Of a stretch of DNA of 64,000 nt, positions 1,877-63,832 are shown one piece after another. A program made the position numbers and the translations under genes. Within the stretch, counting starts at the first letter, position 1. Each line of letters opens with the position of its first letter. Under the pieces are notes generated by a model. It made no database searches and was not told the origin of the DNA. It saw only the letters and a list, made by a program, of their open reading frames with translations. This DNA comes from Naegleria gruberi (Eukaryota): NCBI GenBank assembly GCA_000004985.1, contig GG738875.1; one strand, given 5' to 3'.

Positions 1877-2693
1877 TTATTGCTCGTCATCCTCAGCATC
1901 TTCAACTTTAGTTCCATCATTCTTTTCTTCTTGCATATCAGATGTCCACAAAGTCAAGTTGTCTCTCAACAATTGAAGAATGAGTGTAGAATCCTTGTAG
2001 GATTCTTCAGTAAGACTGTCCAATTCAGCGATAGCATCATCGAAAGCCTTCTTGGCCAATTGGCAAGCGCTTTGAGGTGAGTTCAAAATTTCATAGTAGA
2101 AAACAGAGAAGTTAAGGGCCAAACCCAATCTGATTGGATGGGTAGTTGGGAGTTCCTTGGCAACCTTGGTGGCAGTGTTGTAAGAATCCAAGGAGTTGTT
2201 AGCAGCTTCCTTTCTAGAATCACCTGTAGTGAATTCAGCAAGATATCTGTGGTAGTCACCCTTCATCTTGTAGTGGAAGACTTTAGATTCATCAGATTGG
2301 CTTGATGGAATCAAGTGTTGGTCCAAGATTTCCAAAATATCATTACAGATGTCAGTTAATTCACGTTCAACCTTTGTTCTGTATTTCTTGATCTTTTCAA
2401 CGTGATGTAAATTTCCCTTGCTTTCTTCCTTTTGTTCAATAGAGTTGATAATTCTCCATGAAGCACGTCTGGAACCAATAACGTTTTTGTATGCGACAGA
2501 CAAGAGATTTCTTTCCTCAACAGTCAATTCAACATCCAATTGGGCGACTCTCTTCATGCTTTGGACCATTTCTATTATTTACCATCATATTAAAATTTTT
2601 TGTTGTTGTATAATACTCACCATCATATCTTTCAGCTTGTTCAGCAAGCTTGGCCATGAAAACATTATCTTCTCTGGTTTCAGTTTCGCTCAT
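1877..2693 (-). CDS. 14-3-3 protein; join(2621..2693,1877..2571) with a 49-nt intron at 2572..2620
   Basis: Exon 1 encodes [24 protein letters not shown] and ends at a GTGAGT donor. An AATAG acceptor joins it to ...[42 protein letters not shown]..., the canonical 14-3-3 sequence including [14 protein letters not shown]. Codon use is the highly-expressed type (gct/ttc/aag/ggt). Confidence 0.9.
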
Positions 2694-3655
2694 TTTGATC
2701 TAAGTTTTTATAAATTGTATAATTGTATAAAGTAGGTACGGTACAGCGGTGTGAAGATGAGTATGAATACAATAGTCTTTAATAGTTACCTTCAGGGATT
2801 TTGTTTATTTTTTTTTGTTTTAAAAGAAGCTATCTTTTGTATTGCGAGCGAGCCAATAGCGGTTGAGCAAAAATCGATTGTAAACACTCGTCACAGTCTT
2901 GAAGTAAAAAGACGGCAAGCAACAAGCTGAACCTAAATTTATCTCCAAGTACGGTCGTAAATTAAGAGATGATTAAACAAATCAAGCACTGCTGAAACAA
3001 TCCATTATTCTTACAATTTGTCATAATATATCAATTAAAATTACAACAATTTAACTGAACCAACCATATACTTCATTCCTTATCAATTAAGGCTCTCTCC
3101 ATTGAAAATCTACAAGCTGGTCCTTCTTCTGATAATCTCCCACCAATAACAACACAATTCAAAGTCAATAAACAAAAAGTGCAACACAAATTCCGATATT
3201 TGTCTTCTCGGAACTCTCGCTCTCTCAAAAGCATTACGTGGCTTCCCGCCAAAATTGGTTAGACTCTAATTTGTACTTTTTGCTGTTTTTGCATTCTTAA
3301 GCACAATTCAATAAGATTTTCTTCTTATTGAATAACTTTGATTGTCGTGAGGTATTGAAATTATTATAATGGACTTATCAAGATTACAGTGAACTCTTGC
3401 TTTGAATTGGATATCATCAATGCGATTGAACACAAGAAGAAATTGGTTTATTCAACTTGTATCTCTCTGCTATCAAAATAACAATTATTGAAAATTTGAA
3501 CCAATTTTAAATAACCATCTCAGATGTGGTAATAATGATCGAATAAGATTTTGTTGTTTCACAAGATTTAACATGTTTCCTATTTGATTGCTACATCCAA
3601 AAAAACTCCAAAGATTGATTCACACATGTACCATCACGACAACAATTCAAAATAA

Positions 3656-29134: not shown

Positions 29135-30886
29135 ATGTCTGAAGAAGAACATAACGAATCAGGTGAAGGTTTTGAATCATTCAACTATGAAGAAGATGAA
29201 GAACATGAAGAAGAAGAACAACAATCTTCACCAAAACAAGCAACATCACCTTCTCAAAAATCATCAGCCCCTTCATCACCAGCAAATAGACAGCCATCAT
29301 CTCCATCTATGAGACCAACATCAACAAGGAGTACTAAAATGCTTGCTCAATTCTCTTCAAGGCCTAGTACAAATACACACTTTATGGAAAAGTTTGAACA
29401 TGAAAAATCCGACTATTCTAACGACAATGTCCCTGTTGATGATAGAGTTAGAATTCTTGTAAATACAGATAAAAACAACGAAGTTGAAGGTGAAACAAAT
29501 AATGCGGATGAATCATTTGAATCATTTGGTGACGAATTTGAAAATAAGGAAGAAGAAATTGAACCTACAGAGGAATATAAGAATGATCTCGGTATTAAAC
29601 CGTCTGACTCCCATGAAGTTCAAGAATTGAAAAAAGCTCTCAATTCAGATAAACAATTAATTGCTAAGCTTAAAAAGAATAACCAAGGTCTGAAGGAGCA
29701 ACTTGTACAACTCAATCAAATAGTGGAGGAACAACTTGAACAAAACGGAGTTAAAATTCAAAAGCCAAAACCAACAGTCAAAACAGTTCTTGTAGGAAAT
29801 GATCAAGAGCTTAAACTTTTAAGAAAACAACATGAAATTGATAAGAAAACAATTGAAAAATTACAAAAGCAACTCTTTAGTGAAGGAAATCCAGAAAGAA
29901 TCAAACTTTTAGTTAATAAGATGAGTGAATTAACTAAACAACTAGAAGATCTTGAAAAGGAAAATAAGAGCTTGAAGATTATCCAAAGAGAGCAAAGCAA
30001 AGCTCTGGAAACATCTGCTGGTGTTCAAGACAAGACAATTGATGTTATGAAGAACGAATCAAGGTTCCAAAGCGGTAAAATTGAACAGCTGAAAGACAAG
30101 ATTAAAGAGCTCGAAGAAGTAGTTAACCAAAAGAATAAGATGCTAGGTGTTCATGAGCAAAAAGCAAAGAATTTAGAAACAATTTTGAAGAGAAAGAACT
30201 TGACAGAAGATGGTGTCACAAAAATTGATGAATTGACAAAGCAAATTGAAGAATTATCTAAAGAAAATGACAAATTGAAAAAGGATACTATTGTTATGAA
30301 CAAATCGAAAGAAGTGTTGGAAAAGAAAGCAAAAATGATTAGTTACCAATCCAAACAAGAAGTTAAGAAATTTTCTCAAGAAAATACAGAACTAAGGATG
30401 ATGTTAGAAAAGAGAGAGAAGGATATAAGAGCTTCGAACATGATTCTCAAACAAAACAACCTTACTCAACACATGATAACCATTAGTCCTTTATCTACTC
30501 CAAATAGTTCTTCAGACCTTTTTGCAACCAACCAAACATCTACAAATCAACCAACAAGTGGTGGTGGCTCTTCTGGTAGTCAAAGAAAGGTAACAGCAAG
30601 TCCAAGTCCAACAGCTCCAAAGACAAAGACTGTAACTAAAACAACAAATGCTGCTGTCACTGAACACAAGAAAATAGCCAAGAAGAATAATATTCAAACT
30701 TTGGGAGAAAAGAAGAAGAGTATAACAAGCACAGCTCAAGAAATTCTGAATACTGTTGAAGAAGCAGTAGATGATGAATTTTTCGGTGATGATTTTGCAG
30801 GAGACGACTTTGATGACAGCGAAGAACCACCAAAGCAATCATCTAACAATAACGAAGAATCATCAATATTTGCTCCAAGTTTTTAA
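29135..30886 (+). CDS. Hypothetical coiled-coil protein with acidic N- and C-termini (583 aa), single exon
   Basis: ATG at 29135. A long heptad-rich central region (KALNSDKQLIAKLKKNNQGLKEQLVQLNQIVEEQLEQ..., LEDLEKENKSLKIIQ...) between acidic, Ser/Pro-rich ends. No specific family recognised. Confidence 0.55.
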   Translation: MSEEEHNESGEGFESFNYEEDEEHEEEEQQSSPKQATSPSQKSSAPSSPANRQPSSPSMRPTSTRSTKMLAQFSSRPSTNTHFMEKFEHEKSDYSNDNVPVDDRVRILVNTDKNNEVEGETNNADESFESFGDEFENKEEEIEPTEEYKNDLGIKPSDSHEVQELKKALNSDKQLIAKLKKNNQGLKEQLVQLNQIVEEQLEQNGVKIQKPKPTVKTVLVGNDQELKLLRKQHEIDKKTIEKLQKQLFSEGNPERIKLLVNKMSELTKQLEDLEKENKSLKIIQREQSKALETSAGVQDKTIDVMKNESRFQSGKIEQLKDKIKELEEVVNQKNKMLGVHEQKAKNLETILKRKNLTEDGVTKIDELTKQIEELSKENDKLKKDTIVMNKSKEVLEKKAKMISYQSKQEVKKFSQENTELRMMLEKREKDIRASNMILKQNNLTQHMITISPLSTPNSSSDLFATNQTSTNQPTSGGGSSGSQRKVTASPSPTAPKTKTVTKTTNAAVTEHKKIAKKNNIQTLGEKKKSITSTAQEILNTVEEAVDDEFFGDDFAGDDFDDSEEPPKQSSNNNEESSIFAPSF

Positions 30887-31718: not shown

Positions 31719-34169
31719 ATGCCAAAGAAGAAAAGAGTACAATCTAAAAATTCTCCATCGTCGTCTGATGATAGTTCTGGAGATTCTGATGAAGAAAGAC
31801 CAACTATTAAAAATAAGGCTAAAAGGAAGAAGGTGGCCTCTTTTGTTGACTTTACTACAACTGATGAGTTTTTGAATGGACTAAGTGATGCTGTTTATTT
31901 TAGCAGATTACCATATGAAAAACTAAGTGTGGAAGAAATTAAAGATTTAGACATTTCATACGCCTTAGAATGTAATGAAGAATATTTAGCTGTCAGAAAT
32001 ACCATATTATTTATGTGGAGGAAAAATATTACAGAATGGATTGATTGCGATAAATTACTTGAAATTATACCAAGGCTAAAATTCTTCAAAAATATCAAAT
32101 CAGACTCTGCTCAATTTGCAAAGATAATTATTAACACTTATCAATTTCTCAATAGACATGGATATATTAATTATGGATTTTTATCAAAATCAAAATATCC
32201 AAATGGTATTACTACTAACCTAAAAATCAACCATTATAAAATGTTGGATAAATTACCAGTGAATAATCAAAAAGATAGAAAGCATATAGTGGTAATAGGA
32301 GCTGGATTTTCAGGAATTTTTGCAGCTAAACAATTAATTTCATTTGGATACAGAGTTACATTAATAGAGGCTAGAAACAGACCAGGTGGGAGAGTGTTAA
32401 CAGATTTTTCATGGACAGATGATTCTCCAGTTGATATCGGAGCATCAATTGTTACATGTAGTGCCGCTTCTCCTGTAGTTGGTGTAGCAGAACAAACTCA
32501 AATCAAATTGAAAAATATTGGTAAAGAAGATCAACTTTTTCAATCTAATGGACAAATACTACCTAAAGATTTGGATGATAAATATCAAAGAGCATTTAAT
32601 GATATTTTGGATAAAGTATGTTCCCTTAAACAACCAGGCTTTGAAAATGAAAGAGAGGAATATAGAAGAGATGTTCATAAGGGATTTATTGACAGCCATC
32701 CAAAGGATATGACAGATGAATCACGAATTGGCAAAACAGACATGTCACTCGGATACGCAATGGATAAAATGACTGAAAAAATTGTAAATGAAGCACCTGA
32801 AAGTGAAAGAAAAACTATGCAGGAGGTTCTTCAATGGCATACAGCCAACTTGGATTATGGAGTTGGTCACGATATAGAATCTGCTTCATTATATTTTTGG
32901 GATCAGGATGATATTTATGAACTTGGTGGAGAACATTTGTTTGTCAAGAAAGGATTTTCCTCAATGATAGATGCACTTTGCAATGATGCTCAGGAATTGG
33001 ACAAATATATAGAATATAACCAAATGGTAGTTGGTGTTGATTACTCAAATCCAGATATTGTAAGAGTCAAGACCAAGAAAACTCCAGAAACCACAGGAAT
33101 TCATAGGAACCCAATTGGAAAATCAAAGCAGCTAAAAGAAGGCAAACTGGATACTAATGCTGATGATTTTGAATATGACTGTGATGCTGTACTTACGACT
33201 GTTCCTTTAGGAGTTCTTCAGGGTAAAAGTCCACTAAATATTTGCACCTTTAATCCACCACTTCCTGAATGGAAAACTAACTCGATTAACAAATTAGGAT
33301 TTGGCCTTTTGAATAAGATCATCTTGGAATTCGATTATGTTTTTTGGCAACAAGATCACTTTTATTTTGGACTAACGCATGAAGATCCATCAGAAAGAGG
33401 TTTTTGCTATTTATTCTGGAATTTATATCCTTTAACCAAAAAGCCTATACTTTGTGGTTTGGTAACTGGAAAGGCTGCTTATGCAATAGAGGAAAATGAG
33501 AGTAATTTGGAATATATCAAGTCAAAAGTTATGAAATATTTGAGAAAATCCTTCTCATGGAGTACAAACTTACCCGATCCAAAGAAAATTATGAGAACCA
33601 ACTGGTATCATGATCCTTTCAGTACTGGTTCCTATAGCTACGTTAGAATGGGAGCTAAGGGAGAAGAATACGACTTGTTGGCTGAAACTATTGATAATAG
33701 AGTTTATTTTGGAGGAGAGCACACTTGTAGAAAATTCCCAGCAACTGTTATGGGAGCTGTAATTAGTGGACTGAGAGAGGCCGCCAAGATTGACAAATAT
33801 TTTAATGGACTATTGTTTAAAAAACAGAATAAGACCCAAGACCAAGACCAACAGGAGAGTGTTACATCTAGTCTAAAGCCAAAGGGTGATATCTTAATAC
33901 CTTCAAACCCTACTGAAATGTCACAAATAATGAAACCTGTTCCTGCAAATCAGAGAGGATGGAGAAGACATTTGAATGCGTCAATTTTAAAGGACCCAGC
34001 CCAATTCCCTTTTCCAGTTCAAAACGTTGGCTTCAAACCTCCACTTCCTGGTTTTTTTCAATTTCCACTAATTTCTATGGGTTTTAATCCACAAAACCAA
34101 ACTAAGAAACCTCTAAACCTACAACAAAATATCAATGGCCAGCAAACCCCTCAAAAACCAACAGAATAG
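31719..34169 (+). CDS. Lysine-specific histone demethylase 1-like (SWIRM + FAD amine oxidase), single exon
   Basis: ATG at 31719. SWIRM-like block ...NTYQFLNRHGYINYGF (LSD1 LERHGLINFGIY). FAD-binding motif HIVVIGAGFSGIFAAKQL...IEARNRPGGRV. C-terminal amine-oxidase signature YFGGEHTCRKFPATVMGAVISGLREA. Confidence 0.8.
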   Translation: MPKKKRVQSKNSPSSSDDSSGDSDEERPTIKNKAKRKKVASFVDFTTTDEFLNGLSDAVYFSRLPYEKLSVEEIKDLDISYALECNEEYLAVRNTILFMWRKNITEWIDCDKLLEIIPRLKFFKNIKSDSAQFAKIIINTYQFLNRHGYINYGFLSKSKYPNGITTNLKINHYKMLDKLPVNNQKDRKHIVVIGAGFSGIFAAKQLISFGYRVTLIEARNRPGGRVLTDFSWTDDSPVDIGASIVTCSAASPVVGVAEQTQIKLKNIGKEDQLFQSNGQILPKDLDDKYQRAFNDILDKVCSLKQPGFENEREEYRRDVHKGFIDSHPKDMTDESRIGKTDMSLGYAMDKMTEKIVNEAPESERKTMQEVLQWHTANLDYGVGHDIESASLYFWDQDDIYELGGEHLFVKKGFSSMIDALCNDAQELDKYIEYNQMVVGVDYSNPDIVRVKTKKTPETTGIHRNPIGKSKQLKEGKLDTNADDFEYDCDAVLTTVPLGVLQGKSPLNICTFNPPLPEWKTNSINKLGFGLLNKIILEFDYVFWQQDHFYFGLTHEDPSERGFCYLFWNLYPLTKKPILCGLVTGKAAYAIEENESNLEYIKSKVMKYLRKSFSWSTNLPDPKKIMRTNWYHDPFSTGSYSYVRMGAKGEEYDLLAETIDNRVYFGGEHTCRKFPATVMGAVISGLREAAKIDKYFNGLLFKKQNKTQDQDQQESVTSSLKPKGDILIPSNPTEMSQIMKPVPANQRGWRRHLNASILKDPAQFPFPVQNVGFKPPLPGFFQFPLISMGFNPQNQTKKPLNLQQNINGQQTPQKPTE

Positions 34170-34216
34170 AAGGACACTAATTTTAGAATTCAATGACGTA
34201 ACAAATAATTTAAAAA

Positions 34217-36192
34217 ATGGCAGATATTGTTCTTCCAGATACTCACTATGATGCCATCATTGTCGGAACTGGTATCGAAGAGAGTTTAATTGCTGCATCG
34301 TTGAGTAGAGCTGGAAAACGAGTACTTCACTTGGATTTAAACGATAGTTATGGTGGTCATTTTAGTACAGTGAATCCATCTGAATTAAACGAATATGTTC
34401 ATGTAAAATCTTTTGATTCTGATGTTCCGGAACCTTTTTATCAAAATCCATTCTCTCAAATTAATTTTAAAATTATTGATGATTTAAATATTTCTCTTCA
34501 AAGAAAGACAATGATTGACTTGTGTGGATTGCATGTTTTATATTGTAGAGGACCTATGGTAGAATTATTAATTCAATCTGGTATTGCTAGATATTTAGAA
34601 TTTAGATGTTTGGATTCTGTTTTAATGTTTGACAAGGAGCATTCCACTAACCCATTTAAAAATGTTGTAAAATCTGAAGATGAATTTTCACTTGTGGATG
34701 TTTCTCAATTGTTTCAAGCAGTTCCAACAACAAAGGGTGAAGTTTTTAAAACCAAGTTTATTTCTCTCAAGGAAAAGAATAGACTTGTAAAGTTTATTAA
34801 CTTTTGTGTCAATCTATCCACTCAGGAAGAAGAAATGAAAACCTATAAGGAATTTGAAAATGAATCATTTGATTTATTTTTGAGCAAGACACAACTGTTG
34901 GGAGACGAACAAAGCTTTGAAAAATTGAGAGATATTGTTGTTCATGCTTTGGCTTTATTAGATTCTCCAATTGGAATAACCACTAAACAAGTTATGAGTA
35001 GAGTACAATATTTCATTTCAAGTTTAGGTAGATTTGGAAATGGAGGAGCTTTCCTTTATCCATTATATGGACAAAGTGAGCTTGTACAAGCATTTTGTAG
35101 AGTTGGTGCCGTTTATGGTGGTGTATATGTTTTGAGAAGAGGAATTCATAGTGTAAAACTTGTTGAAAATGCTCACTATCAAGCTGAGCCTGTAAATATC
35201 GATCAAAATGAAGAGAAAAACTCAGACCCAACAGATGAAACTACCGATAGACCAGTAATTTATTCTAAAGAAAAGGTTGTGATTGAAGTTGGAAGTGGAG
35301 TTCAAACATTTACTTGTGATCATTTGGTAATGAACAGAGATTCTTGTCCAAGTGATACCAGTAGCACAGATGACGATTTACTTTTGAAGTTTGTTGTAGT
35401 TACTGAATCTCCATTGTTCAATTCAATTGCCAACACTATTGCAGTTATTCCTAGTGGTACAATTTCAATTGTTGCCTCTGATGAAACAATCGTAAAACAA
35501 CCATGTGCTATTTATTTGAATCAATTAGATTACTCAAGTTGTGTCGTTCCTAGAGGAAAGTACATGATCTCCCTTCAAACAAGAATTCCTTCAGACATTA
35601 GAAAATCCAATTCAGAGGTAGAAAGTCTTGTAATCAAAATGTTACAAACATGTGTAGACAGATTTATCAAGAACATTGAAAATGAGGAAAATATTGTATT
35701 CTCAACTTTATATAAGCAATCAATTCGTAAGGGAAGTTTTTCATTCTCTCAAGAATTGGACAGTAAGATTCATTTCTGCAATGATGCTAATCATGATGTC
35801 ATGCAATTAGAAAGTGGAATGACAGAACATGTTAAGGCTATCTTTAAGGCTATTGCAGGTGAAGATGTTGAATTCCTCGCAAAGATTCCTGATCCAAACA
35901 AGAGCGATAGAGACGAAGAAGATGAGCTCTACGATGAAACCACTAAATTGTTGGGAATTGAAAAGTCCAAAGTTGTGCAACCTCCCAACACAACAGCACA
36001 ACAATGGAGGAGCAAAATTTGGGAGGCGATAACCAACAACAAGATGAAATCAAAGATAACAATAACCCAGCAACACCTGCTGCTGATCATGAAAATGTTG
36101 CTGTTTCTGCTTCTGATGAAAATAATAATATTGAGCAAGAACAACCTCAACAACAAGACGACTCTGAAGGTACCAAAACAACAGAAAAATAA
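34217..36192 (+). CDS. Rab escort protein (Rab GGTase component A; GDI/REP family), with an apparent 1-nt frameshift near 35995-36006 before the acidic C-terminal tail
   Basis: ATG at 34217, 47 bp after the previous stop. N-terminal FAD/GDI fold motif MADIVLPDTHYDAIIVGTGIEESLIAASLSRAGKRVLHLDLNDSYGG; the length fits REP rather than GDI. Frame A is protein-like up to ...VVQPPNTTAQQ. The acidic tail MEEQNLGGDNQQQDEIKDNNNPATPAADHEN...DDSEGTKTTEK* lies in the +2 frame (ORF 36004..36192). Frame A beyond that point reads LLLIMKMLLFLLLMKIIIL, which is typical out-of-frame acidic repeat. Confidence 0.65.
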
Positions 36193-36238
36193 AGGAGTTT
36201 TTTCCCGCCAATTTGCCATCCAATTACGATACAAAAAA

Positions 36239-38509
36239 ATGCGAAGATCATCATCAGGGTCAAATATTGCTTCCTCATCTTATCGATCGAATACATCAAA
36301 CTCTGATAGTGATGAGGATTTAAAAAAACCAAATAACAAATTGATGAGAAATTCTATTATTCAAAGTGTAATATCTGAGGCGAGAAGTATAGTAGAGACA
36401 GAGGAAATTCTTAGGCCCTCAATAGCAAGGCCATCACGACCATATACACCTCGGGATTGTGAGAGAAGATTATTTATTGAAAATGAATACACTTCGCGGC
36501 CCACCTCAGCTGTATCAATCTCCAGCACTTTTGATTTTTCTCACCGAAATATTGGTTCATCAAGTGGTACGCGGGATGAAACAAACCCAGAAATTACCCG
36601 AGTGGGTTCTGGTAGCAGAAAGAAGGTAAGTAAACTTTATTAAGATTTATTGGATAAATGGTTGTAATAGAAACCTTCATCATCAAGCTCCAAAAGAACA
36701 GGAAGTAGTAAAAGTAGTAGAAGTGATTTGGAAAAAGAGGAAACACATATTCATGAGCAAGGAACAAGTGACAAAGTGTGGAATTCAATAGAAACAATTC
36801 TTGGCTCTTTGGAACAATGCGAAGACGAAGATGCTCTTATGGACTCCTTGGACTCGATATTATTGCTGGTTGATAAACTTAAAACAGTCCACAATCCAGT
36901 TGAAGATGAAAAGAAGATTAATTTCATTGGAAGACTGTCAAAATACATAGACATAGAAAACGGGCCTCGAGCTGTTAAATGTTGTTCTATAATTTTAAGA
37001 GTTACCACCTTTGGTTACCAGATACTACATATTTGTAAAATACTATTCAAGATTAGCAAACAAGAAAAAAATGACAAAGTATTTAAGGATGACAGTATTA
37101 TTGCACCCTTGGTTAGATTGTTAAATCAAGAATTTTCAACCGATAATTATTCCGTTTCTTGGGAGATTTTACTGTTTACAATTGGTACATTGAAAAACAT
37201 TTCATATGATAATTTCAATCAAAAACTGCTGATCAAACACAACACCATTTCACTCCTTTCTTTACTCCTTTCGTCAGCACTTAGAGAGCTGAAAACTGGA
37301 AATATGGAAAAGGTAAACAAACAAGCTCAGCTTTTAGTTCAGATTATGGCCACATTGAGAAACTTGGCCATGAAGACTGGAACTTTTAAACAATTTTTTG
37401 AGTATAATGTGATTGATAATATTCATATTTTGATGAATGCCCTAATGTCTCACTCAGAGTTTATACATAACTCTACTAGAGTTTTAAGCAAACTTTCTTT
37501 AGATGAAACGTGTACAGAAGAAATGAGAAAGATCTCAACCTTAAAATCATGTTTAATTAATGTTATGAAAGAGCACAAGAAACACAAACCAATAGTTGTG
37601 CGAGTTACCTTTATTCTAGGAAACATTACATTCCAGGATTACTCAGACCAAGAACTCTTTGATGAAAAAACAGAAATTCCTTTCTTGTTAGACCTTTTAG
37701 ATCTTTACTCAATCGAAGATGAAAGAAATACTAGTGCAGAAAATGTAAAGAAGGAAACTGAGGATTTATTGACAAAATTAATAAGGTTGATTGCAAATAT
37801 TTCGATGGATGAGCACCAAGGAAGAATAGTCGCTCAAAGTAAACAAGTAACTAGGTTGATTGAAATAATAGAAAGAAAGAAAGTTCAAGATTCTGAAGAG
37901 CTTATTTTGAATACACTAAGATGCATTACCAATCTTTCGTTTTATGCTTTTAGTGACACAGCAAGTCCTTTATATACATTCAGAGTTAAGCTTGCTTCCC
38001 TTCTTTCTCCACTTCTCTTCCATGATTTGACAGATGTTGTCTACGAAGCTACAAGAACATTCGGTAATCTTTCTCAAGACTCAAGTGTTCGGGAATACAT
38101 TACCAAATCTAGAATTGATGAAGCTTTAATAATAATGGTTGAACATGGCAATACGGATATTGTATATGCTGTTTGTGGAGTACTTGTTAATATGACTTCA
38201 GACCCAAGGGGTATTAAAGCAATCCAGGAGCATGGTGTAATTGAAAAATTACTAGACGTACTGGAGAAGTGTAATGTTTCACTAGCTTTAGTAATTTTGA
38301 AGATTATCCATAACATTTGTCTTAACAATGAGGCTTTTGGAGAAAATTCAAAAATTTACTCTGACTATGATTTGGAACATTTAGATATGTTACTAAATGA
38401 TATTCTCAACCATGAATATGATCACGAAGAAATGAACGAGCAAGAAGTATCCATGTTGAGAGATTTGTCAAGTGTTGCTCAAGAATTACAATATATTCTT
38501 TCTAAATAA
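36239..38509 (+). CDS. Armadillo-type repeat protein (741 aa); join(36239..36625,36671..38509)
   Basis: ATG at 36239 (aaaaaaATGcga). Exon 1 encodes MRRSSSGSNIASSSYRSNTS...RVGSGSRKK, a Ser-rich N-terminus, ending at a GTAAGT donor. A 45-nt intron and a TGTAATAG acceptor join it to KPSSSSSKRTGS...EKEETHIHEQGT.... The rest is ARM/HEAT-like helical repeats (e.g. AVCGVLVNMTSDPRGIKAIQEHGVIEKLLDVL). Exon 1 lies in the same frame as the upstream REP ORF with no intervening stop, so the ORF track fuses the two genes. Confidence 0.6.
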
Positions 38510-38522
38510 ATTAATTCATATA

Positions 38523-39491
38523 TTATTGATTCTTATCAGTTGTAATTTGAAGCGGATCCTTCTCAATTTCAATATTTATATCCTTAAAATCACAATTACT
38601 CTTTCTAAAAATCTCTGTTACTTGTTTTAATATTTCCTTTTCACTACTTTGTACATTGATTAATATCTTTAAACTTCCTACATTTGAGTTTGATTTCAAA
38701 ACCCAAAAGTGTGGATTACTAACATTAATAACTCCATCAATATCCAGTATTTCTTTAATGCATTCATTAATAGAATATTCGTATTGAATAGGTGTTCTTT
38801 GAAGTAAAACTCTACTAGAATTAGAAATTAAAGGGAAGCTAGTATAAAGAATCATAATTGAAATAATTAAAGAACAAATTGGATCAGCAATATACCATCC
38901 AAAATATTGTACAATTAATGTTGATACAATAACACCAATACTTCCCAGAGCATCAGCAATCATGTGAAGATAGACACCATAAATATTTTCATCATGTTGA
39001 TGGTGATGATGAGAACATGAATCACCTTCATCGGAATGATGTTGATCATGGAAATAAATTACACCATACATATTTACACCAAATCCTAGTATCGAAACTA
39101 ATAACAATTGTTGAGTATGAACAATAGGCGGATCAATTAGCCTATGAATTGATTCAATTAAAATATAAATCGAAATAAACACAAGTAAAATTCCATTAAT
39201 AAATCCAGATAAATATTCATATCTAACATATCCATAGGAATATATGTGATTTGACTTCCATTTTGACATTATTGATCCATATAAACCAATAATTAAAGCA
39301 GCACAATCAAAAAACATGTGTGCAGAATCGGAAATTAATCCCAACGAATTATTATATATTCCAAAAGCCAACTCTACAAACATAAACAATAAATTAACAA
39401 GAATAAAATAAAATAAATATCTAGTGTCCTTATTCGCATAGATATGTGTATTAAACATATCGGAGAGAAAATTAGGTGATGATGATTTCAT
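38523..39491 (-). CDS. Cation diffusion facilitator zinc transporter (ZnT/SLC30-like), single exon
   Basis: ATG at 39491. Six predicted TM helices, a His-rich cytosolic loop HDQHHSDEGDSCSHHHHQHDE, and conserved CDF motifs (SDSAHMFFDCAALIIGLY, HMIADALGSIGVIVS). Its stop is 13 bp from the stop of the convergent upstream gene. Confidence 0.85.
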   Translation of the reverse strand: MKSSSPNFLSDMFNTHIYANKDTRYLFYFILVNLLFMFVELAFGIYNNSLGLISDSAHMFFDCAALIIGLYGSIMSKWKSNHIYSYGYVRYEYLSGFINGILLVFISIYILIESIHRLIDPPIVHTQQLLLVSILGFGVNMYGVIYFHDQHHSDEGDSCSHHHHQHDENIYGVYLHMIADALGSIGVIVSTLIVQYFGWYIADPICSLIISIMILYTSFPLISNSSRVLLQRTPIQYEYSINECIKEILDIDGVINVSNPHFWVLKSNSNVGSLKILINVQSSEKEILKQVTEIFRKSNCDFKDINIEIEKDPLQITTDKNQ

Positions 39492-39705
39492 TTTTTTCTT
39501 ATGGTCATGTCATCTTATGAAATTATCATCATCTTTAATCAATAATAATTCATTCACAATACTATTAGCAACAACAACAACTTGATAAGAGAACTCTCTC
39601 AATTGCCCTCTCTTTTGCGAGACAAATTTAAAAAACTTACGGTTACATTCAAGTTTTAAAAAAAAGAGAAAACACAACTATTGAGGGCAAAGATTTTTCA
39701 AACAA

Positions 39706-48700: not shown

Positions 48701-50208
48701 ATGTCTACAACAATTACTTTAAAGTGGAACAAGTCAACTTTTGACAATGTCGAAATTGGGGATTTAAAAACTGGTTTAGATTTCAAGAAGAAATGTCAAG
48801 AATTAACTGGTGTTCATCCTGATAGACAAAAAATCATGGGTTTGGGAGCTGGTATCTTGAAAGATAATCAAGAATTGAGTGCTGTTAAAGTTAAGGCTGG
48901 TCAACTTGTTAGAATGATGGGGTCTGCTGATGAATTACCAGAACCACCAAAGGAAAAAACAGTTTTTATCGAAGATACTGCTAAAGAAAATGGTGATGGT
49001 GAAGTGGTAAGTAATTTTGATTCCGATCACAAATATTCATTTCCTCTTAGCAATATTATCCAGCTGGTTTGGAAAATTTAGGAAATACTTGTTATATGAA
49101 TTCTGCCCTTGAAAGCTTTAGATACGTTCCAGAATTGAGAGAAGCTATTGAACATTTTGATGGATCGTCTGTTAGTGAATTGTTGGAAAAGGATAAGGAA
49201 ATTGCCTCTGAATTGAAATCATTGTATAAGAGATTGGATACTGCTAATGATTCTATTTCACCAATTACATTTTTAGAAGCTTTCAGAAAGGCTTATCCAC
49301 AATTTGCTGAAAAGGAACGTACTGAATTGGGAGAATTTTATTCTCAACAAGACTCTGATGAATTTATTACTAATTTATTAGGATCTTTGGAAAATATGCT
49401 CAAAACTAGTGATCGTAATGTTGTCAAGGATTTATTCGAAGGTGAATTTGATGTCAAGTAAGTTATATTCGAAAGTACTTGTTACTTATATTGCTTTTAC
49501 AGACTTCAATGTACAGAATGTGAAGAAGCTCCAACTGTCACAAAGGAAGCTTGGAAGAAACTTTCATGCTTTATCTCACAACAAGTAAGCAATTTACCTT
49601 ATGGATTACAAAAGAGTTTAGATGGTACTTTGGAAAAAGAATCTCCAACTCTTGGTAAAACTGCTGTATATACTAAAACTCAAAGAATTTCCAAATTGCC
49701 AAATTATTTGGTTGTTAACTTTGTTCGTTTCTTCTGGAAGCAAAAGCAACAAGTTAAGGCTAAGGTTTTGAGAGATGTCGCCTTCCCATCTGTTTTGGAT
49801 ACTTTTGAATTGTGTACTGATGAATACAAGAATAAGTTGAAGGAAACAAGAGAAAAGATGAGATTGGACCGAGAGGAAGAAATGAAAAAGAAGAAGGAAG
49901 AACAATTAAATAATTTGGGACAACAAGCCAAGAAGCAAAAGACTGAAGAAACTGACAAGACACCACTTTATCAAGTCAATGATAGTGGTTGGTTTGAATT
50001 GTGTGCTGTAGTTACTCACAAGGGTAGAGCAGCCAACGAAGGTCACTACGTTGCTTGGGTTAAGAATGATGCTGGACAATGGTTGCAATTTAACGATGAT
50101 GATGTCACTGCTGTTACTGAGGAAGAAGTCAAGAAATTGAGTGGTGGTGGAGATTGGCATACTGCTTATTTGTGTCTCTATCGTAAAGCACGTAAACTCA
50201 ATTTATAA
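48701..50208 (+). CDS. Ubiquitin C-terminal hydrolase USP14/Ubp6; join(48701..49006,49051..49457,49503..50208)
   Basis: Exon 1 is an N-terminal ubiquitin-like domain (MSTTITLKWNKSTFDNVEIGDLK...LVRMMGSADELPEPPKEKTVFIEDT). A GTAAGT donor and a 44-nt intron lead to the Cys box PAGLENLGNTCYMNS. A second 45-nt intron (donor GTAAGT) is followed by CTECEEAPT...CFISQQVSNLPYGLQKSLDGTLEKESPTL... and the His box GHYVAWVK...SGGGDWHTAYLCLY. Colinear with human USP14 throughout. Confidence 0.85.
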
Positions 50209-51982: not shown

Positions 51983-53386
51983 ATGCAAGACAATAATTTA
52001 TTGTTTTCTGGTAATAATTCTAGCAGAAAACATGCTTCTATTAAATCACAGAGTGAAATATCCTATTCACAGAGGAAAAATAATCGGATTGACTTGCAAA
52101 AACAAGCACATAAACAAAAGAGAAATCAATTATTGGAGCAATTAAAAAGAAGAAAGGTTTCCGACACTGTAAATGATGATGCCACCCAAGGAAGTGATTA
52201 TGTATATAATATTGGAGTATTTTGCAATGTTTTACTTTCACAAGAGTCTTCAATTCCTCAAAAAATCAATGCAATGAAACAATCGAGAATTATCTTGTCA
52301 AAATGTGATCCCGATACTTTGACAAATATTTTGGAAAAGAATGATCAATTTATTAATCTATTACATCAATATTTAACTTGTAAATATTCCGAGTTGCAGT
52401 TGGAATCTGCATGGTGCATTACAAATATAGCTGCTATGAAGGATGAAAGTGTTTCATTTTGCATTCCTACTCTGATACAATTGATTTCAAATTCATTCTT
52501 GGATGTGGTATTACAAGAACAGTGTATATGGGCTCTTGGAAATATTTCTCTGGGATTTTATAATAATACTCCTCTATCGACTGTTATTATACAGAATGGT
52601 GCTATTCAATATCTGTCTAATACTATCAGAACATGTAGAGCCAAAGAAATTCTCAAAACAACTTTATGGTGCGTATCGAATATTATTAGAAACGAGATTT
52701 TACATATGAAACACAATACACCAGAACATAATCAGCAAATATTTGGATGTCTTGGTCAACTGTATGAACCAATAATTTACCAATTACTGAAAAGAAATTT
52801 GAGTGATGATGGAAACATTTCAGATTTGTTATATGTGTTAAGCTATTTAACTGCTTATCCTCTCACTGACATGAGCAACTCTACAAATTTTGTTCAAATA
52901 TTTATCAAATATTTAACCCCACAAAAACAAGAATTTATAACACCAATTATACGGATTATTGGAAATATATTTTGCTCTTACAACTTATTTTCAGCATTGG
53001 ATCAGAACTTATCTTTAGAATTAATGAACTTGTTGTCTAACATTCCAGATAAAAACAAGGAATGGTGCTACATGATGGGAAATATATCTTCGTATGAGGA
53101 AATCAATGAGATTCTCATTCAACAATATCACCTTCTTAATATTGTAATAGATACTCTCAAAATAGCCATCAATTCTGATATTTCGAACAATAGCGAATTG
53201 GTGCGTGAGACTGTCTATACTATAATCAACCTGACAACAGCTAATCATAACAAATACCTAACTAAGGAAATATTGGAACTGATTCAACGAGTAGCTCAAA
53301 CCTATACATTTGACGAGAATGAAAATAATCAACAATTCAAAATGGTTCTTACACAATTCTTCGACTATGCTTCCAGATTACAATAA
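51983..53386 (+). CDS. Armadillo-repeat protein, importin-alpha-like (IBB-like basic N-terminus)
   Basis: ATG at 51983. Basic N-terminal RKNNRIDLQKQAHKQKRNQLLEQLKRRKV resembles an IBB domain. ARM repeats carry the importin-alpha W...N signature (ESAWCITNIAAM, EQCIWALGNIS, TLWCVSNIIRN). Divergent from canonical importin-alpha. Confidence 0.55.
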   Translation: MQDNNLLFSGNNSSRKHASIKSQSEISYSQRKNNRIDLQKQAHKQKRNQLLEQLKRRKVSDTVNDDATQGSDYVYNIGVFCNVLLSQESSIPQKINAMKQSRIILSKCDPDTLTNILEKNDQFINLLHQYLTCKYSELQLESAWCITNIAAMKDESVSFCIPTLIQLISNSFLDVVLQEQCIWALGNISLGFYNNTPLSTVIIQNGAIQYLSNTIRTCRAKEILKTTLWCVSNIIRNEILHMKHNTPEHNQQIFGCLGQLYEPIIYQLLKRNLSDDGNISDLLYVLSYLTAYPLTDMSNSTNFVQIFIKYLTPQKQEFITPIIRIIGNIFCSYNLFSALDQNLSLELMNLLSNIPDKNKEWCYMMGNISSYEEINEILIQQYHLLNIVIDTLKIAINSDISNNSELVRETVYTIINLTTANHNKYLTKEILELIQRVAQTYTFDENENNQQFKMVLTQFFDYASRLQ

Positions 53387-53405
53387 AAAAAATGCAAACA
53401 TAAAT

Positions 53406-55304
53406 ATGGAGCAACATATTTTAATTGATGGGAAAATTAATTATGAATTGGATGAGTTGTGTTCTAACCTTGCTCTTCATCATGAACAATATAAAGAAGG
53501 AATAACAAAAATTAAGAGATGGGAGGAAGCCAAGTTTTTAAAGGATCAAGACTTTCAAGTACCAGAAAAACCTTCACTTGATGAATTAGAAAAGGAGGAA
53601 TTACGATTTGAATGTGAGAGTGATGTCCTCCCGAATTATGCTATACCATCTTCATCTTCTAGAAGAGATTTAGAAATAATTTTAAATCAAATTCTTTCGA
53701 TTATTAGATCGGATCATGAATTTAAAAAGTGGATTATTGAACAGGCACTCTCCTTCATTTCTAAAAATTTTAAATCATTATTAATTGATAATTTCCTTGA
53801 AGTAATTCAGAATTTATTTGAATTACATGTGAAAAAAACAAAACCAAATCAAGATGATGTATTTATTGAAACTAGAGTCCAAGAGAGTATTTGGAAAACA
53901 ATTTTATTTGATATGAAAGAGAATCACGCGGAGGATGGGATACTGATTGACATGTCTTTAACATTTTTATATTTGAGAACTAAAGAATATGAAAAGGCTG
54001 AAACATGTCTATTGAATATCATAATAGCATTAGAAAAATTAGAGTCTAAACTAATTCTAAATTATTTTTATTTATTATTAGGACATGTTTTGAGGATAAA
54101 CTTCAAGCTAGATTCGTGTGCTTGTTATTTTAGAAAATTAGTGAATAGTCTGCCTTTCGATAAAACAAATAATACAATACTTTATTCTGCCATTTATATG
54201 TGGTTAGGCGAGGTAATGGAATCAATGGATTTGGATGTGTGGGCTGTAGAATCATATCTTAAATGTAGCAAATATTTTTCTGATCATCCAAATATGAACC
54301 ATCCCTTTGTAACGATTTCATTTGTTTTTATCAAGTTGGCAGAGCTTTTCTTTAAGGATTATAAGGAGAATGGAAATAATATACATCTTGCAAAAATTTT
54401 CTATCACAAAGCCTTTATTGGATTTGAGAAGAATAACCTACTTCAAAATAAGACATTTATAGAACTGTCTCCATATACAATCAATTATAACAAAGCGAGT
54501 ATAGCAATACGTTTGGGTTGTATTATTTATTTGGAAAAAGATTTTGAAAAGAGTTTAGACTTTTTCCTAAAAGCTGAGGAATGCCTGCTTAAAATCAGAT
54601 TTGAGTAAGTTATTGAAATTTAACTCGATACTAATTTTGGATCTAGTCAATCTCAAAGAAAAAGTGATGGATCAGCTCTAAATATTTTACAATCTCTACA
54701 TAGAAAAATAGCAATCAATTATTGTAGATTGGGCCTTTTTCAAAATGCCTCACGATATGTCATGTATAGAATTATTGTGGATAATAGTAAGATTTCAGAC
54801 ACAACAGACTACCAGAAGCAATTAAATCTCATACTGGAAGAAAAAGAAAGAGAGAAACAGGAACGAAAAACTCATGCCAAACATGTGATAGCTCAGGAAC
54901 ATCCAATATGTTTCCTATCTCTTTCTCTTATATCATTTCACAAAAAGTCTATTATAGAATTATGTAAATACTGTGAACTAATTTTCAAAACAAGTGAACT
55001 CGACAAGGAAGTTTATCTCCCACTCCTTACCTTCCAAAAACTTGTTTCCTTATTAATCTCTTCACAGCAATTAGAACTAGCCCAAATAATCTGTTCCAAA
55101 TATCTCATCTCTGCCAAATCATACGCACTCGGATATTACATTCTCTTTCTACTTTCCATTAAAAACCAAGACAACAATTCAATCATTGGATGTTGGAAGA
55201 AGTTTAATGAAACCTATGTAAGCAACAAGCCATTTGAACCAATGAGTGTCTACTGGCCATTCATCTTGTCCTCAACTTTAAGATTTCCACTGCCAAAACT
55301 GTAA
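53406..55304 (+). CDS. Hypothetical helical-repeat (TPR-like) protein, 618 aa; join(53406..54604,54647..55304)
   Basis: The true ATG is at 53406 (MEQHILIDGK). The ORF-track start at 53310 is a non-ATG codon overlapping the previous gene. Exon 1 ends ...LLKIRF plus GA at a GTAAGT donor. A 42-nt intron and a TCTAG acceptor give D-QSQRKSDGSALNILQSLHRKIAINYCRLGLFQNASRY.... No family recognised. Confidence 0.5.
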
Positions 55305-61980: not shown

Positions 61981-63832
61981 ATGATTGCAGCATCAAACAA
62001 GCCATCATCATCTGGTGACCACCAACAAAATACAACAGTGCCAAAAGAAGATGCTGCCTTGAACACTAATAAGAAGGAAAATGTTGATCAACCATCATCG
62101 GAATCAACAAATAATGCAATTGATAAGAAATTTAGTAAAAATGTTGATGATTCTGATTCAGATCTTTCATCAGGCAGTGATAACAAGGATCCAACAACAA
62201 GATTTAATATTTTAAGGTCTACAAGTCTCAGAAAAGCCTATAAAAATTTAAAACAACAAGAAAGAGAAGAGTTTGATTTGGTTCAATCAGATGCCAGTCA
62301 ATCCGAAAGTGAAAATTATATTCCATCAAAAAAGACATATGGCAATGGTGTATCACTTTTGAAAACACCTAAAATTCCAACTACTGTTGCAACCCCTACG
62401 AAGCATAGTGAGACTGTCAGTCAAACCAATAGACTAGTTTGCATAACTAGACCTTCTATTCTGGCTAGAGACTCGGATAAACTTAATTCGTATAGAGGTT
62501 TCTTGAATTTGGCCATCATCATACTTGTTGGTATGTTTCTAATATTATTATTATATTTTGTTAAACAATTTAATAGTGAGTCACTTACGTTTAATGTTAA
62601 TTAATTTCAACAAGTATGGTATCTTGTTGAATACCCATGAATATGTAGCTGCTTTCTTGAAAGATCCATCAAATGGATGGGAAGTCATTCTCATGTTTGC
62701 ATCTTTGATTATTTGGATTGTTTTGGCTTTTGCAGTTGAAAAAGTTATTGCAATTTATATTAGAAACAAGTTCAGTCAATTGTTAACAAAGAAAGATCAT
62801 CAAGTAAGCAAGAGAAAAGCTTTATGGAGTCATATTTTGAAGAATGCAAGCTTTTTCTCATTCTGTTGTTACTTTGTGTTGGACACTACATTATTGGGAG
62901 CCACTATATCATTTGTATGGCTTTTTAATCCACATCCAGTTGCTGGTATGATGTTATTGACCTTGGGAACTATTGTATTCTTAAAGATGACATCATATGG
63001 TGTGGTAAATGACCATTTGAGAGAAAGAATGTGGGAAAGAAAGGCACAAAAATTGAAAACAATTGACACTGTTGCCACTGCTACTGGAATTTCTTGGTAC
63101 AAACAATATCCAGACAATATTTCACTCTATGATATTTTCTATTTTATGTTTACACCAACACTTGTCTATGAAGAATGCTTCCCTAGAACCAAGTCTATTA
63201 GATTCAAGGTTCTTTTATTTGATTGCTTGGAACTTTTGGCTTGCTCCTTCATTTTAATCTTCTTAGTTGAACAATACGTTATGCCTCTTGTTGAACACTC
63301 AGTTGAGCCAATGAGAGAAAAGGACATGTTACGTTTATTCGAAAGACTCCTCAAATTGACAGTTCCTAATATTGTTATTTGGATTGTTGGATTTTATATT
63401 GTTTTCCATTTAGCTTTGAATATTGTAGGTGAGATCCTATGTTTTGGAGACAGATTATTTTATCTTGATTGGTGGAATTGTACAGATCTATCCTATTTCT
63501 GGAGAACATGGAATTTACCAGTTCACAAATGGATGGTATTGCACATTTACCTTCCACTTGTAAATAATGGTGTTAGTGCATCTATTGCCAGCTTTTGTGT
63601 ATTCTTTGTGAGTGCTATATTCCATGAACTTATCATTTCAGTACCTTTCCATAAGGTTTATGGTTTGGCATTTATGGCAATGATGGTACAAATGCCATTG
63701 TCATTCGTAACAAAGAAATACTTGAGAGGAAAACAAATTGGTAATGTAGTATTTTGGATGAGTTTTATGATTGGTCATAGTAACACTCTCATTTTCATTT
63801 ACAATGATATGCACTCAGCAGCAAATAATTAA
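61981..63832 (+). CDS. Diacylglycerol O-acyltransferase 1 (DGAT1; MBOAT family); join(61981..62530,62577..63832)
   Basis: ATG at 61981; the track start at 61945 is TTG. Exon 1 ends ...SYRGFLNLAIIILV plus G at a GTATGT donor. A 46-nt intron follows, then V-SHLRLMLINFNKYGILL... (human DGAT1 SNARLFLENLIKYGILV). Downstream are FYLDWWNCTDLSYFWRTWNLPVHKW (DGAT1 [25 protein letters not shown]) and the active-site His in SAIFHELIISVP. Confidence 0.85.

Follow-up and report, generated by a model that had tools for sequence, protein, structure and literature searches.

Frame change before the acidic tail of a predicted Naegleria gruberi REP gene and its artificial fusion to a putative ARMC2 orthologue

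Results

An Open Reading Frame That Joins Two Genes

In a 64,000-nucleotide (nt) stretch of the Naegleria gruberi genome (contig GG738875.1 of assembly GCA_000004985.1; "the window" hereafter), the listing of open reading frames (ORFs) gives a single ORF of 808 amino acids (aa) at 34217..36643. This ORF is an artefact that fuses two ordinary separate genes, a predicted REP gene and a putative ARMC2 orthologue downstream of it. The sequence as given appears to lack one base (or to carry two extra) within 35975-36006, most probably at CAACAA^TGGAG. The last 62 REP codons, which specify a predicted disordered acidic tail, are out of register, and the upstream reading frame (frame A) continues across the tail and the 46 nt between the genes. 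ARMC2 exon 1 happens to lie in the same frame, and frame A ends only at a TAA in the ARMC2 intron.

The region was translated in the three forward frames. Frame A (codon starts = 2 mod 3, from ATG 34217) reads ...LLGIEKSKVVQPPNTTAQQ and after it WRSKIWEAITNNKMKSKITITQQHLLLIMKMLLFLLLMKIIILSKNN...RYKK; its protein-like part, ...DELYDETTKLLGIEKSKVVQPPNTTAQQ, ends at 36004, and its stop-free continuation is WRSKIWEAITNNKMKSKITITQQHLLLIMKMLLFLLLMKIIILSKNNLNNKTTLKVPKQQKNKGVFSRQFAIQLRYKK. The frame then enters MRRSSSG (ATG 36239) without a stop, the first one lying at 36641-36643. The tail frame (1 mod 3) has no stop between 35962 and a TAA at 36190-36192; read from ATG 36004 (MEEQNLGG...TTEK*), it gives MEEQNLGGDNQQQDEIKDNNNPATPAADHENVAVSASDENNNIEQEQPQQQDDSEGTKTTEK, with peptides such as NLGGDNQQQDEIK. 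An earlier sequence-only reading of this DNA had described frame A as protein-like to ...PPNTTAQQ and as junk thereafter, and had attributed the 808-aa ORF to the lack of a frame-A stop before exon 1 of the next gene. Its coordinates and strings proved exact, frame A scores negative over the tail bases in the codon analysis described below, and frame A indeed has no stop before that exon.

Coding Signal in the Displaced Tail

A codon log-odds score, for which the remaining long ORFs of the window served as the training set, was applied to 36004-36189. The tail frame scores +0.67 bits/codon, against -0.34 for frame A and -1.73 for the third frame; the REP body scores +0.41 bits/codon, below the tail. 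In sliding windows it is frame A that scores positive up to approximately 35970-36000 and the tail frame thereafter. When the segment is shuffled by mononucleotide, an open stretch of 76 codons such as this one turns up in only 0.8% of the shuffles. Because few tail codons have T at position 2, the tail gives frame A no stop, and the frame-A register is stop-free in 49% of shuffles of the tail codons; the read-through that fuses both genes is a compositional accident. The frame-A read-through has a net charge of +17 and a hydrophobic fraction of 0.38, and the repaired window tail (77 aa) a net charge of -12 and a hydrophobic fraction of 0.10.

REP Identity and Orthologue Tails

REP (Rab escort protein), which binds unprenylated Rab and hands it to the alpha/beta subunits of Rab geranylgeranyltransferase (RabGGTase), is the accessory subunit A of that enzyme, known as REP-1/CHM, yeast Mrs6p, and Arabidopsis REP. 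The frame-A protein has the same GDI/REP fold domain (Pfam GDI, PF00996; 136.8 bits, gathering threshold 23, E = 1e-39). Its best matches among solved structures are to rat REP-1 (1LTX_R and 1VG0_A, ~3.5e-38), ahead of the Rab GDIs (best 1e-25), and the named top database matches are all REP or RabGGTase component A. The REP body is 596 aa long, compared with ~450 aa for GDIs. By these matches the upstream gene is identified as a predicted REP, nearer REP than Rab GDI.

Identity of the REP body is 53-54% to two Naegleria-like proteins (P0001, from an ENA metagenome, and P0002, encoded on contig L003 of Logan SRR29240419, from another Naegleria), 41% to Willaertia magna (ABK040_002137), and 31% to Acrasis kona, over 54-100% of the body; the body of the window gene carries no other lesion. 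Alignment of C-termini shows that the seven closest REP orthologues (heterolobosean and other) all share the motif DETTKLLGI[D/E]K and all go on in frame past it. Six of them have an acidic polar tail after the motif (28-74 aa, net charge -4 to -18, hydrophobic fraction 0.10-0.24); the exception, P0006, has only ~10 residues more. In the heterolobosean REPs (P0001, P0002, W. magna, and A. kona) the tail is in frame with its own stop, unlike in the window.

The C-terminal tail of REPs is long, disordered, negatively charged, and weakly conserved (PMC9293207). The window gene resembles REPs generally in that the DETTKLLGI... end of the fold is followed by an acidic, presumably disordered tail, which is of low complexity, without a Pfam match, and lineage-specific in sequence as in other REPs; the record differs in that the tail is one base off frame, and only once the frame is repaired does the window REP have a long, poorly conserved, negative C-terminus. 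The sequence-only reading had assigned the acidic tail, in a shifted frame ending at 36192, to REP; the codon score and the six orthologue tails support the view that 36004-36192 belongs to this gene.

Placing and Repairing the Offset

One base inserted after 36004 yields a stop-free 658-aa REP, ...NTTAQQMEEQNLGG..., as proposed earlier for an extra nucleotide near 36003; an example is CAA CAA ATG GAG, which joins the frames (sequence with the added base, e.g., CAACAAATGGAG). Removing two bases, for instance in the ACA/CAA microrepeat, repairs the frame equally well. Frame A remains conserved as far as IEKSKV, the counterpart of IDKSKI in P0002, and the ten codons between IEKSKV and 36004 score +0.31 bits/codon in frame A versus -0.02 in the tail frame; PPNTTAQQ-MEE is weakly colinear with TPITTPQTSEE of P0001. 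On the strength of this conservation, colinearity, and codon scores, together with the coding onset at 36004, the best guess for the site is 35999-36006. The tails of the window, L003, and a further contig (L004) are too diverged for a DNA alignment that would place it. The longest homopolymer in 35975-36006 is CCC, an AAAA at 35961 lying upstream of the zone.

The ARMC2 Gene and Its Boundary

The downstream gene is 67% identical to N. lovaniensis C9374_005755 (95% coverage) and ~30% identical to vertebrate ARMC2 (armadillo repeat-containing protein 2; E = 1e-59 to 1e-48), a cilium/flagellum protein with which it has armadillo repeats in common and from which it shows no relevant difference. 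C9374_005755 has no REP domain upstream. On L003 the REP (865 aa) is closed by a TAA of its own (3050-3052), and a 67-nt spacer separates this stop from the ARMC2 ATG at 3120. Judged by these comparisons the downstream gene is a separate, putative ARMC2 orthologue, as the sequence-only reading had held for an armadillo-repeat (ARM) gene with its ATG at 36239.

That reading had also predicted a splice at 36625/36671 removing a 45-nt intron. The intron (36626-36670) has a donor of 12.6 bits and an acceptor of 6.9 bits in a matrix built from 13 credible window introns, and its guanine-plus-cytosine (GC) content is 0.22. The spliced ARMC2 product, ...GSRKK followed by KPSSSSSKRTGSS..., aligns gap-free across the junction with N. 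lovaniensis ...GTRKKKPSSSGSKRTGSS..., and L003 has an ARMC2 intron (GTATGT...AAG) at the homologous position; the predicted splice thus holds. No N. gruberi protein was among the database matches for REP, ARMC2, or LSD1, in which N. fowleri, N. lovaniensis, and W. magna were present.

Organization of the Region

The features of the region are collected in Table 1.

Table 1. Coordinates of the REP and ARMC2 features in the window
Feature	Coordinates	Strand	Remarks
REP body (predicted), frame A	34217..36004	+	596 codons to ...PPNTTAQQ; PF00996 1e-39, REP-1 best PDB matches, codon score +0.41 bits/codon
Putative indel zone (1 base missing / 2 extra)	35975..36006	+	best guess 35999-36006, CAACAA^TGGAG
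Predicted REP acidic polar C-terminal tail, -1 frame	36004..36192	+	62 codons + TAA; codon score +0.67
Intergenic spacer, 46 nt	36193..36238	.	ends in A-run start context caaaaaaATG
Putative ARMC2 orthologue exon 1	36239..36625	+	129 codons, by chance in frame A; aligns to N. lovaniensis C9374_005755 N-terminus
ARMC2 intron, 45 nt, GTAAGT...AATAG	36626..36670	+	holds in-frame TAA ending 808-aa ORF
Putative ARMC2 orthologue exon 2, armadillo repeats	36671..38509	+	Pfam Arm + ARM_ARMC5 matches

The upstream neighbour of REP encodes an LSD1-like SWIRM amine oxidase that shares 61% identity with its N. fowleri counterpart. The order LSD1-like amine oxidase, REP, ARMC2, and cation-efflux transporter (convergent) is alike in the window (31719-39491) and on L003 (1-6692), so that the neighbours of the two REP genes are the same on both sides. 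The tail stop lies 46 nt upstream of ATG 36239, the LSD1-REP spacer (34170-34216) is 47 nt long, and the convergent ARMC2 and cation-efflux genes end at 38509 and 38523, 13 nt apart; with such head-to-tail spacers and convergent gap, the genome is very compact. The GC content of the window is 0.33. An A-run (aaaaaATG) precedes the REP ATG, the ARMC2 ATG, and most other starts in the window, and is not found before ATG 36004.

Other Candidate Frame Switches

A scan of the whole 64 kb for direct frame switches that need no intron returned four candidates, of which only the REP junction stands. The candidate near 2549 (minus strand) falls at an intron of a 14-3-3 gene (~1877-2700, minus strand), which is interrupted by a short GTGAGT...AATAG intron and has no frameshift; the one near 49057 adjoins an intron, and the one near 30480 is a false positive. 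Two overlapping ORF pairs were also considered. At 62558-62604 the overlap is due to an intron instead of a frame switch. ORFs 51983..53386 and 53310..54608 (overlap 53310-53386) are two adjacent same-strand genes, not a frameshift; they overlap as ORFs because the genes are only ~24 nt apart (in 53386-53411, the stop at 53384-53386 is followed by a ~24-nt gap and then by the next gene, ATGGAGCAACAT...).

Discussion

The cause of the offset is, we infer, somewhat more probably than otherwise a consensus or base-calling error in the assembly. The tail is intact, with 76 open codons and a codon bias above that of the body, so a real frameshift could only have arisen very recently. No eukaryote tested survives a complete loss of REP (PMC9293207), frame A contains no stop ahead of the expected 3' end of REP, and the REP body is otherwise undamaged; all three count for a sequence error. 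The REP junction is like known assembly indel artefacts that fuse or split ORFs in showing a single intronless switch in an otherwise intact conserved gene, with the coding signal kept downstream, and ordinary residual error in an assembly could account for one such junction per 64 kb.

Several points weigh against this explanation. The site is not a long homopolymer, in which it differs from such artefacts, and hence is not the classic context of an indel miscall. When the neighbouring 3.2 kb (36339-39536) are compared with the same species in an independently assembled metagenome, there is no gap (99.66% identity, 11 mismatches), and locally the record is clean. Yeast and Arabidopsis tolerate truncation of REP at its C-terminus (PMC9293207), so an indel that destroys the tail would not necessarily be lethal. 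Finally, no independent read or contig over 35950-36020 was found in the protein databases and JGI metagenomes searched. The same-species contigs (L001 and L002; ENA ERZ929261 and Logan ERR1078381, project PRJEB11402), which were found via the cation-efflux neighbour, end at window positions 36339 and 36375, short of the indel site. Contig-end ORF fragments are apparently absent from the protein database (a 100-aa ARMC2 exon-1 fragment on L001 was not returned), and a REP fragment from the ERR1078381 sample would therefore be invisible there. Searches for exact protein matches to three ORFs (the LSD1-like one, the 808-aa fusion, and the 62-aa tail) gave nothing, nor did a protein pattern for the REP C-terminus and the exact tail 24-mer in the JGI metagenomes; a literature search for PRJEB11402 found no paper.

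Some of these points would favour a genuine indel, either a recent mutation confined to the strain or, in a heterozygous or polyploid amoeba, the allele that the assembler happened to pick, which we regard as possible if rather doubtful. Such a copy would give either a REP whose tail is junk or missing or a nonstop mRNA, and the cell would survive through a second allele or because it tolerates loss of the tail. The lack of a long homopolymer, the indel-free flanks, and the mild effects of C-terminal truncation in yeast and Arabidopsis (PMC9293207) all agree with this, and the CAA/ACA microrepeat (AACACAACAGCACAACAA) could slip by 1-2 nt. Set against it are the full codon bias and 76 stop-free codons retained by the tail, the nature of the product (a 78-aa basic hydrophobic extension or a nonstop transcript, in a gene whose complete loss is lethal), and the fact that no second copy or allele is seen in the data available. 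That the offset is genuine and also fixed in the lineage, the tail being made by a -1 shift without a classical slippery site or replaced by a new basic hydrophobic, tail-anchor-like REP C-terminus, we consider highly improbable.

Jointly, all readings other than an assembly error or a real indel have little probability. The frame could be restored in the mRNA by a very short spliceosomal intron, 32-41 nt long, within 35965-36012, and five GT...AG pairs of length 3n+2 are stop-free and keep LLGIE (35965-35996, 35972-36009, 35972-36012, 35975-36009, and 35975-36012). Their donors, however, score -12 to -6.7 bits and their GC content is 0.50-0.53, whereas the 13 credible window introns have GTAAGT/GTATGT-like donors of 8.0-12.7 bits, lengths of 43-188 nt, and GC contents of 0.10-0.30; two more pairs from GT 35950 score +2.0, yet remove the conserved LLGIEK motif. 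Donor score, length, and GC content lead us to reject such a rescue, to which we give very little credence. Programmed -1 ribosomal frameshifting or transcriptional slippage, by which the tail would be decoded from the sequence as given, has only geometry in its favour: the tail lies in the -1 frame, which overlaps frame A from 35962. No X_XXY_YYZ heptamer is present in frame A within 35940-36030, the longest homopolymer is AAAA in 35960-36012 and CCC inside the indel zone, and at -12.3 kcal/mol the fold of 36005-36104 is no more stable than those of shuffles (z = +1.04); nor would recoding be conserved, since in seven orthologues the body and the tail share one frame. With neither heptamer, long homopolymer, nor structure, recoding is rejected and seems most unlikely. 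Slippery-type heptamers (AAATTTG and TTTGGGA) do occur at 36015-36024; they follow the register of the tail frame instead of that of frame A, have no bearing on the frame change, and are probably there by chance. It is similarly hard to credit that the tail ORF is open by chance, as part of a 3' untranslated region, and that REP ends otherwise. A low-complexity tail without a Pfam match might be taken that way, but its codon score, the rarity of so long an open stretch among shuffles, and a composition like that of the orthologue tails speak against it, and with no frame-A stop before 36641, REP has no alternative end.

For annotation, the 808-aa ORF is to be split into REP and ARMC2 genes. 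The corrected REP model would extend over 34217-36192 with one base repaired (658 aa), and the corrected ARMC2 model would comprise exons 36239-36625 and 36671-38509 (741 aa). If the indel is real, it would open no new question and would represent a natural tail-loss allele of REP in a free-living amoeba, which would fit the dispensable REP tail of yeast and plants.

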